Positions 29,006-60,138 of a DNA stretch of 64,000 nt are shown one piece after another; position 1 is the first letter of the stretch, and every line of letters begins with the position of its first letter. This DNA is from Eledone cirrhosa (taxonomy: Eukaryota): positions 74,648,001-74,712,000 of the forward strand of contig OZ024746.1 in the NCBI GenBank assembly GCA_964016885.1. The letters run 5' to 3'. The translations under genes and the position numbers were made by a program. Below the pieces are notes generated by a model. The model made no database searches. It saw only the letters and a program-made list of their open reading frames with translations, and was not told the origin of the DNA.

Positions 29006-29214
29006 TAACGAAGGAGATGTGGAAAGGAACCAGATGGACCATAACGCACTAGAGTACTCAATACTTAGGATAGTAGAGTGGGTAATAGGAAAATGTATGT
29101 AATAGGAAAATGTATGAGCTCAAGCCGTTTCGACGGCTATTTCTGGACATCTGGAGTCCAGAAATAGCCGTCGAAACGGCTTGAGCTCTGCTGTCGGGGT
29201 CATACATTTTCCTA
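29006..29214 (-). mobile_element. Hairpin-headed short element (HHR 3'-half family)
   Basis: Palindrome gtttcgacggctatttctgga..tccagaaatagccgtcgaaac plus a ~90 bp tail shared with the 39167, 57591 and 59998 copies. Confidence 0.85.
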
Positions 29215-32200
29215 TATATATATATATATATATATAATGTATATATATATATATATATATATATATATATATATATATATATATATATATGTGGGTGTGT
29301 GTATGTATGTATATGTATATATATATATACATATATCTGTGTGTGTATTTTGTGTGTGTGTATTGGTGTGTATTTCCTCGGCGATGGAGGCACCTCAATG
29401 CAGGTAACTATAAATAATATTTGAATAATTCGGACAGTATAATGCTGAAGATGGACAAAAGCTGACAAAAACATCTGTGAAATCGAACAACGCGTCAGCC
29501 GTAGGCAGGCTGGATGACCTCGTTTAAGCACTACATCGCATTCGGCCGCTAATTTCCATATTTAAGAAGCTTTAACTGTTATTTAGCTACAATTGTAAAC
29601 AAATAACATTTGCTTAATTTACGAAGTACTGGGGAAATTTGAAATACCGAAAATATGTTAGTTTTGTGGGGGAAGCCGTTACACTGTGTTTATTTATAAA
29701 TAATATTGCCTTACTTAAGTGGTACACTCAATCTATCACCTGTTGGCTTTAGTTCATTCAGATTCTGTCTTCGCTTTCTTCTGTCGTCGCAAATATAATT
29801 TGATCCCTTCAATCCTACACGTCTTTGAGGCCCTGAAAAGTGATCACGGGCTCTACCCGTCACTGCACCCCCCACCCCCCATCTCTCACTGAACAGTAAC
29901 AAAACAAAAATTGTGCCGTAAATTAGGGCAAGATTTTTTTTTACTACTAACTAGTATCGAAATTGATTTTTGAAATTGAGAGAAGAGCAAATTTACCTTC
30001 TAATCTATTGGAATAGCTCCCTTCATTAAACACCACGGCCAGCCCACAACTAGTCACCACTAACAACAGACATCTCCAGACACGTATAGTCAGATCTATA
30101 AATGTTTTCTGAAGACAGCTGTTCATTATCTAATACCTTCTATCTGGACGCTATCCTTCCTCGTACTATTACTCCCCCCCCCATCCCTTCTCCAACTTCA
30201 TCTCCGTCCTCCTTCACCTTCTCCACCATCTCCTCTGTACACAAACTAAAATAGAAACGATGAATATAACAAACAAACAAAATAAGAAAAAGAAAAAAAA
30301 TAATATTAACAGGAACTTCAGCAACAGTAGCAAGAGCAATAGCAAAGACAACAACAACAGTAACAACAACACTTCTCGAAATTACTTTGTGGCTGTGTAA
30401 TAGACATTATTTTCAGCATTGATAATATTTTTATCAGTCATTGCAGCTGCGATATCAAACACGCTGCTATATGCTTTTCGTATTTTTGATTGGATGACTA
30501 CGAGGGAGACAACGCTAGACACACACACATATAAAGATAAATATGCACACACACACATATATAATTAACATGTGTATGTATCTATGAATAAATGAATGTG
30601 TGTGTATGTGTGTGTGTGTGTGCCTACCTATCTTTGTTTGCGCGTATGTCTGTGTGCGTGCAGATAAAAACTCAAACAAAATATATATAAACAACAGCAA
30701 TAAAACATTACCACACAATACATCGCTGTTAAACAATGAAGAAATCTCTCTCTATCTTACTATATTTCTTTCTTTCTCTCTCTCTCTCGCTCTCTCTCTC
30801 TCTCTCTTTCTCTCTCTCTCTCCTACCCCTACCCCCCTCTCTCATTCTCTCTAATGGTCATTAGCTAAAGTGACCAAATATAGGGAATATAAGTTTTACA
30901 ACAGCAACAATAATAATAACATTAATAACCCAAATATTTACTTCACCTAAAATCACCAATACCCTACCACCACCAACCCACACCCCCACACCTCCCACCC
31001 CACCGCCGTCATGACAAATACCAAGATACGTTTGTAATTATTTGTGATTTCTTCTCAACTATCTGAGATTTTGAGGAAAGGAAAGTGTAAATACATTTAT
31101 GTCGCTCGGGTTTTATCAAACTTTGTTTCCTCAAAGTTCTAGAGTAAGTGATGTATTTATAGTTTACGATTGAAGCTGGGTTGCAGTTTGCCTGTCAATT
31201 GTACACTACACGACAGATAGTGAGGCCCATATCCTTTATATTTGGTTTCAAGGGAGCCTCTAAGCTGTCGCTTGGTCTGCTAGAAATAACAACCAGATAT
31301 CCCTTAAATTGCAACCTATCACCTTAGAAAAGAAGGATATTTTACGTAACGTGGTTCTGAATTCAGTGAGCCTGGGAAAAAAGACGGGTTAGTCGCGACT
31401 GAAAGCCCTTTGATCATATGATTATACAAGCCAGGCTAACATGAGGATTAACAACGATATTGGTTATAGATTGCAAGATCAAATCTAATATTATTGAAAG
31501 CATAATTAATTTAACTTACCACTATATATGAATGGTAATTTTATGAGCCAACGAAAGAGCCGGGACCTAATCTAAATATCTGAGCCTACATTGGAGAACT
31601 TAGCATTAAATAAACGAAGGCTGAACAAAACATGGGATAGCTATGGGTAGAATCATTTTTATAGAAGTTTGGGGGAGGGGTAGATTGTTTTCATTACCTT
31701 GTTTCTACCCAGCATATCCTTGTATTAGTTAATTGTGGGATCACTTGCTTGTTCTTTTTAAGGTAGAATTTATATATATAGGTGTACTAACCTAGGGATT
31801 GAACTCAGGACGGAGAGTAAATCTTAACCATCCATTGATTTGTCAATAGAACAGCTATTTTGTGAAAAAGATACGATGATATAAACCTAACAGCTTAGAA
31901 AATGTTGATCATTTGTGAAGAGAGGAGAGTGACCAATTCTTGTAAGATAAATTCAAGATAATAGATAGGAAACAAAAATGATTGTATGAATCAGAGTATA
32001 TGCTTGCCTCAGATAACGATCTCAATAAAGCTAATATAGATTTTTAAAAAATGACATACGAGCGTTTAAAGAAGGGCGTAAAAGGCCATAAAACAGTGAA
32101 GCTTAAAACACCTAATTTCCATCAAATACTTATCCCATGAGCTGGAAATAACTGTATGATGAGAAGAAAAGCCTTAACTCATTCAGTTTAGCCTGTTTTG

Positions 32201-33777
32201 TTATAGACACCGGGGAAAAACTACCTGCCCTTCTGTGTCCAACTTTATTAGTGAAATGATCTTTATACTGACATCTGCATGTCATCTGTTCTACATAAGA
32301 TAGCAGCCATTCGACACCATTCCATACATCAGTAATCCACAGTCATTGAGCATATAAACGTCTAAATGATCCTTTCATTATTGGCACTGTATCTTTGCCA
32401 ATCCGACTAAGGTGACTGATCTACAGGCATGGATCATCTCAAACTATTATTCCCAACATGTCAACCATTATCAATATCAGGTAAATTGCATTTGAACATT
32501 AATCCATGATATCATAGGTGAATGTCTTCCAGTAAGAAGCTGAATATAACATAGCATTCTACAAAGAGGGAATCTTCAAAAATATCGATTCTTACACATT
32601 AAGTTACTCTACGGGGTGCAATAAGCAAGCCTTAATATTCTTATGTCGTCAAATATCTTTCAAATCAGAATTCAACATCTTGAATAAGAAAATTGGTGCA
32701 TTAAATAATGTGGTCCTTAAGAATCAGGAAAACGTGTAATGACCATAGCTGGGATATCTTTGATCATACATCTGCTTGATCATGATTGGCCTGGATCTAA
32801 AACTCACAGCATCTAACCCATACTAAATTCAGGGGTTGATTTTTCTTCTATTAACTATATTGAAAATTGTGATAATTTTAATATCTCGTCATTTAACATC
32901 AGTTTCTCGAACTTTCTCCAGACGTTCAGCATTATATTTTCCTCGTCTGCTTTTCTCTCTTGATTTTCTTTTGTGTTTTTTATCTTTGACACAAAACTAC
33001 GATTAGACACCTCTAATTCACTTGATCATATTTCATATTTCACCTTTAATTCTACTGACCTTTATTTACATGGAGACAAGATCAACGAATCAGCAATGCC
33101 GAACTATGTGCATTTTAACATCACGTAACAATGACCTTACGTCAAAAACCTGAATAAGCAAGCAGATGATAAAGATAATTAATGCTATTTAGGTTATTAA
33201 TGGCTTCATGTTTAATTATTGTATAATCAATACTTAATTATTATCAATTGATTAACTGGTCATTGGAAGCTAAATAGCTTTAGACACACTGATGACACAG
33301 CCATTGTCTTTCACTTCCATCACCTTCTCTCTATCTCACCCTCTCATTCTTCACCAAGTCTCTTCTTATTATTATCTTTTCTCTTTCCTTTTCATTCTTT
33401 AAGTCTGTGATTCCGAAGGAAGTATGAAACCAACTTCGACACTCAATCAACAGCCAGACACAGACATTACATGTCATAAGAACTTAAATATATTTGTAAA
33501 TTGGATTATAATTGTTATCATACATGTAAGGTTCGTCTTGCTAAATATTAAGTGACTAAATTATGATTTCATTTCACTCAATACATGCACACACACACAC
33601 GCACGCACAGACATACGCACACATACATACATATATATATATACGTATATATATATATATATATATATATATATATATATATATATATATATATATACGC
33701 GCGCGTGTGTGTGTGTGTGTGTGTATGCACGTATGTATAGGAATCAGACTTATTCTACCATGTTGTATTGCAGACAC

Positions 33778-58305: not shown

Positions 58306-59997
58306 AAAGTGTGTGGGAAGAGAGTTCCAAGGGTGTGTAGAGGAGTGGAGGAGAGACATATAGAAAAGGGGGGGGTGAGGAAACGGTACAAATGAAAATA
58401 AATATAAAAGCATAATAAAAATAAAAATAAACATATAAGTTAAACAAGTGGTGGAAGGGTGTGGGGCGTGTAGGGATGGTGGCGGGTGGAGTGGGGAGAG
58501 GGAGGCGGGGTGTCCGAGCGGGGAGGGCTGAAGGTGGTGTGTGTGTGTAGGTGTACGTGTGTGTGTGTGTGTGTGTGTATGTATGTGAATGTGAGAGTTG
58601 GGGGAAGAACGGGGTTGCATGTTCAGGAAATGGTGCGTGTGGGGTGGGGGTGTAGGTCGGTGTGTGTGTGTGCGTGTGTGGATGGGGAGGATTCCGGAGG
58701 CTTAGTGTGTAAATATGTGGTGGTACGCACGTGTGTGTGGTGTTTATACGTATTGTGGATGTAGGTGGCGTGTGGGAAATATATATATATATATAGAGAG
58801 AGAGAGAGAGTGAGTGTTTGTTTGTTTCTTTGTGCATGTGTGTAGTGTGTGTGTACGTGTGTGTGTGTTTACGTGTATGTGTATGTGTGTGTGTGCGTGT
58901 GTGTGTTATAGACGCAGACACCGAGAGGAATAGAGATTCAAAGTAAGTCATAAAGAATAAAGAAAGACATACAGCCAGACTGAAATTATCGCCCTTGATT
59001 AGATAAACAACAAACAAAACACATTTTTCTAACATTTTACTGTAGTTATGTTTTAAAGAGTTGTGCAAAAGGTTGAGAGGTGATATTAGTATTGGTAGTG
59101 GTTGTTGTAGTGGTGGTGGTGGCAGTGTCTGGTGTGGTTGTTGTGGGGCCTGTAGTGGTGGTATTCGTGGTGATGTTTGTGATGATGGTTATTGTGGTGC
59201 TGGTATTGACGTATTGTTAATGGGATGTCGGTGTTTACTGGTTATATCCTCCCTAACTTCTCCCCCTCATGGGGGTTTTTTTCTGGGATTTTTTTCCATC
59301 TATTTCTTTATTATTGAGAATTATATAGACGAATAATTCAAATATGTATATATATATATATATATATATATATATATATATATATGTATATGTATATGTA
59401 TATATATATAGAGATATGTATATATATATATATATGTATATATATATATATATATATATATATATATATATATATATATATATATATATATATATATATA
59501 TATATAAATATATATATATATATATATACAAATGTATACATATATACAAATGTATACATACATACACACACTCATATATATGTGTGTGTGTGTGTGTGTG
59601 TGCGTGTGCGATATATATATATATATATATATATATATATATATATATATGTATATATATATATATATATATATATATATACACAAATGTATGCATATAT
59701 ACAAATGTATACATACATACACCACTCATATATATATGTGTGTGTGTGTGCGTGAGAGTGTGAGTGTATAATTAATTATTTTTATCGTATTTTATAAGTC
59801 AATTATTTGTTATATATAAGAGTATAATACAGATATATATACACTCACTTACACTCACACACACACACACACACATACATATATATATAAATGTGTGTGT
59901 GTGTGTGTTAGGTAATATATATAAATACATACATATATATATATATATATGCATACATATATATATACACACACACACATACATATATATATATATA

Positions 59998-60138
59998 ATG
60001 AAGGAGGTGTGGTAAGGAACCAGATGGCCCATAACGCACCAGAGTACTCAATAATTAGTGTAGTAGAGTGGGTAATAGGAAAATGTTTAGCCGTCGAAAC
60101 GGTTTGATCTCTGCCGTCGGGGTCAAACATTTTCCTAT
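59998..60138 (-). mobile_element. Hairpin-headed family copy with internal deletion
   Basis: Same tail as 29006; inverted taggaaaatgttt / aaacattttccta arms. Confidence 0.8.

Follow-up and report, generated by a model that had tools for sequence, protein, structure and literature searches.

Short head-to-head copies of a Penelope-like retroelement in Eledone cirrhosa: a possible record of RNA 5' ends

A stretch of 64,000 nucleotides of the Eledone cirrhosa genome (assembly GCA_964016885.1, contig OZ024746.1, positions 74,648,001 to 74,712,000, forward strand; hereafter the window) contains several short hairpin repeats that carry the 3' half of a hammerhead ribozyme, followed by a tail. Where the 5' half of the ribozyme should be, there is an inverted copy of the downstream sequence. 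What are these hairpins, and how are they made? The original prediction listed six of them and proposed that complementary DNA (cDNA) snaps back on ribozyme stem II and primes its own second strand. All six places are present in the window, and the abundance of the family is far beyond chance. The GAAA box, stem III, GUC and the 3' strand of stem I are real parts of a hammerhead, and its 5' half is indeed missing from the hairpin copies. The hairpins are almost certainly a by-product of a Penelope-like retroelement of a described type. It is possible, with a probability of about 0.4, that their scars are a fossil map of the 5' ends of Penelope RNA. On this reading the messenger RNA (mRNA) starts inside stem II and cannot self-cleave, read-through RNA is cut by an active hammerhead with a U3-A8 pair, and one protein dimer primes both target strands on one RNA.

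A complete copy lies between two (TA)n runs. Its inverted arm is followed by a short centre that varies, by a sense arm (GAAA, stem III, GUC, GGGGUC) and by an 80-nt tail. Positions in the element are counted from the G of GAAA (position 0), and the predicted cut lies between +22 and +23. All genome counts were made with exact sequence patterns. In the 3.0-Gb genome a 23-mer of the core has 12,938 matches and a 19-mer of the tail 36,738, and the reversed controls have 0. At 4,242 places both arms reach -18 and are at most 25 nt apart.

The parent element was found. Locus L302 is a natural partial tandem in which the ribozyme occurs at 206 and 3324, that is, with a spacing of 3,118 bp, and an intact open reading frame (ORF) of 719 amino acids lies between the two. 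In L303 the spacing is 3,523 bp. Thus the ribozyme region is repeated around the ORF as a pseudo-long terminal repeat (pLTR). The ORF contains the motifs RWR (at 37), DKT, YRDD, CxCx5C, GIY-YIG (VIY..YIG), CxxC and CxH. Judged by motifs, it is a single ORF with a reverse transcriptase (RT) and, at the C terminus, a GIY-YIG endonuclease, as in endonuclease-containing (EN+) Penelopes. The tail of the hairpins is, in the parent, the start of the 5' leader of this ORF. Pfam gave GIY-YIG weakly, at E 0.069, in one search, and a search of the Protein Data Bank (PDB) gave no match. Homologues of the ORF are numerous (2,217 at E<=1e-20 among 8,000 scored), none of them being informatively named among the 120 listed. 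The DKT motif, the CxCx5C linker, the CxxC and CxH motifs, the absence of the CCHH cysteine pair and insertion into (TA)n are features of the Hydra clade. The N-terminal motif is RWR instead of RWK, and the units measure 3.1 and 3.5 kb instead of less than 3 kb. By its motifs and TA target the element appears to match the Hydra clade. The Neptune clade, guessed first, was dropped, as the motifs fit Hydra.

The copies do not fit two other classes of repeats. Non-LTR retrozymes, according to the available part of their description, have their units in tandem, and every unit contains a complete type I hammerhead (bioRxiv 2026.07.22.740005); here the copies are dispersed, head-to-head and without the core. 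Miniature inverted-repeat transposable elements (MITEs) or foldback DNA transposons would have terminal inverted repeats at both ends, a fixed interior and a parent with a transposase; here there is a tail outside the inverted repeat, the centre is variable and RT is encoded by the parent. On the whole, the hairpins are almost certainly short head-to-head leftovers of the Penelope-like element, placed in (TA)n, and the short copies are probably dead ends made anew at each event.

The native upstream region of the ribozyme was seen in three of the first 30 loci anchored in the core, which run on upstream without a fold-back. The native ribozyme has a stem I and a core of 7 nt. Its stem II is imperfect and about 55 nt long, with a 5' strand that differs from the hairpin arm. 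What had been taken for a perfect stem II is the centre of the inverted repeat; the native 5' strand is matched only over the core CGGCTATT. The parent has the layout of a type I hammerhead, with three stems around the core, a 3-8 pair, G10.1-C11.1 and NUH, and is predicted to self-cleave. When four natural copies were constrained to the hammerhead fold, they came within 0-1.5 kcal/mol of the free minimum. The pair at positions 3 and 8 is U3-A8 in 4,125 genomic matches, C3-A8 in 1,440, U3-G8 in 16 and the canonical C3-G8 in 8; position 7 of the core varies freely. The 1,440 long arms with C3-A8 lack the 3-8 pair and are predicted to be crippled, yet they have been amplified. Copies with CTGAGGA were considered as the parent and rejected on these counts (8 against 1,440 and 16 against 4,125). 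The G8 forms are apparently sporadic mutants, as each makes up about 0.4-0.6% and they are spread over subfamilies. Searches with CUGANGA miss more than 99% of the parent ribozymes (8 canonical against 5,565 variant matches). The parent expected in the original prediction, with CTGANGA within 12 nt of the hairpin arm, has eight matches, of which seven are mutated fold-back arms and one is a chimera with another family.

The junctions between the arms were collected from anchors in the tail, so that the junction itself was unbiased. There were 146 distinct anchors, all on contig C1, comprising the listed tail places outside one tandem array and 90 of 100 listed places from a second listing. The sequence reaches the ribozyme core at only 11 anchors. 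At the other 135 the sense arm starts between -23 and -16 in 52 cases and between -69 and -24 in three; point mutations shorten a few of these values, and the stop is understated to that extent. A clean set of 86 two-armed copies was obtained from 122 rows by dropping 36, namely 19 matches of TA runs, four self-matches of stem III, one long copy, two rows of a two-tailed copy and ten arms shortened by mutation. The furthest reach of either arm falls between -23 and -16 in 54 of these copies and beyond it in two. This first stop is present in both kinds of arms, 39 inverted and 41 sense ones. With such stops, the arms almost never reach the 5' strand of stem II (about -30 or beyond) that a snap-back on this stem needs. 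A single copy among the 86 does so; L104 reaches -37 and keeps the native loop.

The first stop coincides with initiator-like motifs, with an A at -22 or -18, and in some subfamilies an AT-rich, TATA-like stretch lies about 30 nt upstream of it; initiator and TATA-like elements were compared with their usual consensus motifs. In Drosophila the promoter and the start site of Penelope lie in the pLTR (PMC2377424). From the sequence, a transcription start inside stem II, at an initiator-like motif, is a somewhat likelier cause of the stop between -23 and -16 than anything else. At L170:1000-1600 there is a tandem of a 257-bp unit that extends from -21 through the tail to just past the start of the ORF, which is compatible with template jumping at a fixed 5' end of the RNA.

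A second stop lies at +23. The short-junction set consists of 36 distinct places with a TA run at most 30 nt from +26, taken from 100 listed of 843 rows. Sixteen of them start exactly at +23, and every other position has at most three; with a flat expectation of 1/27, the binomial p is 5e-14. The positions +24 to +26, towards which the search is biased, hold 0, 3 and 2 copies. By eye, 11 of the 16 starts cannot be explained by microhomology. In six copies both arms end at +23 and are separated by an untemplated spacer of 1-5 nt. The hairpins at +23 contain no stem II. For a stall at the base of stem III one would expect C22 to be included. The stop at +23 is likely to mark a 5' end that the hammerhead left when it cut read-through RNA. 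L269 and L272 share an identical 5-nt spacer between arms that end at the cut site, although their flanks differ.

The two arms of a copy are related in a regular way. Among L009-L038 (30 rows, five without an inverted arm within 200 nt, and two representing one insertion) all 25 two-armed rows have one tailed and one tail-less end, and thus an inverted 5'-truncated arm with a tail at one end, as in Penelopes; L069 and L071 are long forms of this arrangement. The exceptions are L094 of the tail-anchored sample, with two tails, and L007, with two short ends. In all six long pairs that cover a 360-nt test region the arms are reciprocal nearest neighbours, with 2-12 differences between them, as against 12-35 from the next copy. 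Both arms have the identical haplotype in 26 of 32 short pairs, whereas shuffling gives 7.7. The variants described earlier as copy-specific turned out to be haplotypes of subfamilies, the 57591 type being found 80 times in a census of the fetched loci. Nevertheless, the idea that the hairpin is remade at each insertion agrees with the long pairs and with junctions that vary from copy to copy: 42 of the 86 have microhomology, seven are blunt and 37 contain inserts. The tail-less arm is longer than the tailed one in 31 copies (29 once two internal deletions are removed), shorter in 20 and within 3 nt in 35, and in five it does not overlap the tailed arm at all. Longer tail-less arms have similar shares in the young (18/49) and the mixed (13/37) samples, as counted by hand. 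At L140 (G000:C1:14.235-14.242 Mb) the tail forms a tandem array with spacings in multiples of about 58 bp, an element-derived satellite. In L004, L046, L050 and others, arms of the hairpin family are joined directly to ribozyme regions of other hammerhead families, possibly by chimeric joining or nested insertion.

The following mechanism may be suggested. The element protein would bind near the ORF start, and reverse transcription of one RNA would be primed from both nicked DNA strands at fixed internal sites, one target strand priming at +39 and the other at +119. Both cDNAs would reach the RNA 5' end after 60-140 nt and run off. This end would be either the likely start site inside stem II or the ribozyme cut site, and the cDNA ends would be joined by microhomology or fill-in. 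Read-through RNA would be cut at +23, and long copies would come from read-through RNA that escaped the cut. An mRNA that starts inside stem II would be devoid of the catalytic 5' half of the ribozyme, whereas the use of one RNA with two RT starts would explain both the one-tail rule and the common source of the arms. Loss of ribozyme activity, which the original prediction saw as a consequence of snap-back, would then be incidental: the 5' half is missing, as claimed, and the short copies are likely derived from RNAs that never held it. The available part of PMC11167929 describes a Penelope protein that in vitro nicks both DNA strands, extends them and starts at two internal RNA sites bounding the tail. 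On the whole, two primers are likelier than snap-back. If true, a single dimer priming both strands on one RNA explains the head-to-head form together with the single tail. Moreover, tens of thousands of copies make the junctions countable and yield exact positions for the RNA start, the ribozyme cut and the two RT starts, and an intact natural ORF is available for an in vitro assay.

Another way to obtain such copies is snap-back at the run-off end: the tail-primed cDNA runs off, folds back over a few of its bases and becomes its own template, to be cut or halted at +39. This would give arms of the same source, and some junctions do resemble minimal hairpins with a loop of 3-4 nt; the one-sided tail has been explained by an intermediate that an endonuclease resolves (PMC8557442, in the part available). 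It is nevertheless rather unlikely, since a tail-less arm could not outreach the tailed arm at birth, as it does in 31 of the 86 copies, and the arms do not even overlap in five. Nor does the share of longer tail-less arms differ between young and mixed samples. Junctions with a loop of 0-1 nt exist, and five of 50 listed centres, counted by hand, are the perfect palindrome expected from two annealed ends at -22. Snap-back on stem II itself, as in the original prediction, has in its favour that the main stop lies within the stem II region and that L104 reaches -37 with the native loop. By the junction map it is largely refuted, and we consider it highly improbable: the required 5' strand is reached just once in 86 copies, the 5' arm of the hairpin differs from the native strand, hairpins arise at +23, where they contain no stem II, long head-to-head copies are centred up to kilobases upstream, and the predicted parent is absent. 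The original prediction did not know this role of the stem as a described one; self-priming as such is already proposed, in the available part of PMC3846280, for palindromes at head-to-head junctions of Penelopes. The form proposed for rotifer Penelopes, with self-priming on an antisense RNA template, is very unlikely here, since it explains neither the stop at the cut site of the sense strand nor the two fixed outer ends that match RT starts on sense RNA.

One may also accept insertion from two ends and explain the stop between -23 and -16 by RNA breakage or by RT stalling at the apical part of stem II. Its width of about 8 nt, the U-rich strand and the runs of A or T that follow it in several copies are in line with this explanation. 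However, a structural stall should occur where the stronger outer helix has its base (-9 to -1), and just 5-9 of 86 arm ends are found there; tandem units and joints re-enter at -21 to -13 (L170), although any fixed 5' end would fit that. We regard breakage or stalling as a minor possibility. Finally, the very high copy number and the fixed outer ends could point to a non-autonomous family of the MITE, foldback or short interspersed element (SINE) type copied from a hairpin master, and locally the one 5-nt spacer that recurs twice may fit such copying. This is hardly credible for the family as a whole, as the centres differ between copies, each subfamily contains both long and short forms, and the short copies lack the ORF-proximal region that the anole protein needs on its template (PMC11167929, available part).

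Several observations weigh against the map of RNA 5' ends. The start inside stem II rests on the first stop and on an initiator-like motif judged by general consensus. The G derived from a cap is weakly seen (T 68, G 15, C 14 and A 3 of 100 arms, counted by hand), and no match to the downstream promoter element (DPE) was found by eye. The RNA-seq data for an anole element contained no reads ending at the ribozyme cut site (PMC11167929, in the part available). Arms of the same source fit snap-back equally well, and unequal arms could have been produced by later deletion. In one of the 32 short pairs, L132, the arms belong to two recurrent haplotypes, and therefore to two templates or to conversion. 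About a quarter of the long arms, the 1,440 with the C3-A8 mismatch, have a core such that many templates may not cleave. Rfam reports no hammerhead in the parent ribozyme, and a Pfam search of the full 719-aa ORF had no match. The junction samples come almost wholly from contig C1.

Within the window, all the listed places exist, but only two, 57591 and 39167, are complete hairpins with tails, both on the plus strand; the other four are deleted, one-armed or of a related subfamily. The copy at 57591..57795 (+) is a complete short insertion in (TA)n with a tail-less inverted arm, junction, sense arm and tail of about 80 nt, and is 95% identical to the natural full-length copy L302:247-392. Its inverted arm (57591..57654, -) has its outer end at parent position +39, the putative inner RT start site. 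The sense arm (57655..57715, +) contains the native 3' strand of stem II, GAAA at 57674-57677, stem III, the predicted cut after C57696 and the 3' strand of stem I. The tail (57716..57795, +) corresponds to +40 to +119 and in the parent runs on into the ORF 5' leader. In the second complete copy, at 39168..39363 (+), the arms extend to about -16 and -18 and disagree at two haplotype sites; those of the 57591 copy differ at one site. The sense arm of the head-to-head insertion at 29006..29214 (-) lacks an internal segment and contains a tandem duplication of 17 bp (29082-29116). At 59996..60137 (-) an inverted arm reaching -8 adjoins a sense arm that is lost up to about +28, and the tail follows. 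A lone tail-less arm at 27933..27990 (-), identical (100%) to L302:251-309, is followed by unrelated sequence. The place near 8280 is a decayed tail-less arm of a related subfamily at 8265..8325 (+); it resembles, by eye, the heads of L083 and L138 and has no fold-back. The window copies, being without the 5' strand of stem I and the catalytic 5' core, are not hammerheads themselves, and an Rfam scan of the window gave only microsatellite and miRNA noise among 150 of 215 rows.

The window contains other repeats of similar build. Another hammerhead family forms a head-to-head palindrome at 22284-22626. Both of its arms have CTGATGA as an intact core, and the centre is not at stem II but about 70 nt upstream of the ribozyme; a copy with one arm is found at about 7685-7860. 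One more family with a hairpin and a tail is found at 61835-62121 and 27027-27285; the two arms at 61924-62076 stop about 31 nt upstream of GAAA, with a spacer of 1 nt between them. The head-to-head copy at 60994-61221 belongs to a third family; it has GAAA and a stem III that is palindromic, and its arms end about 10-12 nt upstream of GAAA. A palindrome of 518 bp at 38653-39169 adjoins the 39167 copy; each of its arms contains a CTGATGA core, and its centre is occupied by a TA run. Further hammerhead-like motifs of other repeat families occur at 61394-61800, 28068, 5100 and about 5930, and therefore at least six such families are present within 64 kb. An abundant dispersed repeat of about 190 bp, which we take to be SINE-like, is found at 1636-1790, 6542-7049, 12771-14231, 27285-27491, 42962-43166, 48368-48572 and 53914-54880, and a degenerate inverted array of units of about 32 bp at 42436-42955.

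In twin priming of L1 elements, primers from both target strands on one RNA also give rise to an inversion, the inverted part coming from another stretch of the RNA; in our case the two cDNAs share one stretch, and the result is a palindrome. The comparisons below refer to the available parts of the cited papers. Inverted 5' arms, one-sided tails, TA targeting, pLTR hammerheads, the U3-A8 pair and the explanation by self-priming are already described for Penelopes. The origin of the inverted ends and one-sided tails, and ribozyme cutting in vivo, are named there as open questions. No account that uses the junctions to map RNA 5' ends, or that shows a footprint of the hammerhead cut in genomic sequence, was found in the literature, covered mainly as titles and abstracts and without supplements; supplementary file S2 of PMC8557442 may hold the family or the ribozyme.

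The closest likeness is to the Penelope-like elements of the Hydra clade (PMC8557442). Both have a single ORF with a C-terminal GIY-YIG, the DKT motif, the CxCx5C linker, CxxC and CxH and no CCHH pair, and both combine a (TA)n target with a pLTR hammerhead, an inverted 5'-truncated arm and a tail at one end. The Hydra clade has RWK where RWR is found here, in a unit of 3.1-3.5 kb, and a tail of 30-40 nt as against about 80 nt. Its ribozymes are reported as "canonical HHRs", whereas the core here is U3-A8 or C3-A8, and unlike in that clade most copies here are mini-hairpins. The Anolis Poseidon element PAc (PMC11167929) shares the nicking and extension of both strands, the two internal RT starts bounding the tail and the AT-rich target, features that for our element are deduced from the copies; insertion apparently needs no ribozyme cleavage in either. 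For PAc, the available text does not deal with head-to-head joining or run-off points and reports no reads at the ribozyme cut site, whereas here a class of insertions starts exactly there. The Penelopes of Adineta vaga (PMC3846280) likewise have inverted pLTR junctions with palindromes, attributed there to self-priming on an antisense template in a few copies; the junction statistics here favour run-off at the 5' ends of sense RNA. With the minimal hammerheads of Penelope-like elements, including the U3-A8 form of Schistosoma Cercyon (PMC4209133), the parent ribozyme shares the type I layout in the pLTR, G10.1-C11.1, the palindromic loop III, the U3-A8 covariation and pairs of motifs on opposite strands. 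Unlike in these, stem III has 5-6 bp here and would permit folding as a monomer, stem II is imperfect and about 55 nt long, and a form with the C3-A8 mismatch has been amplified.

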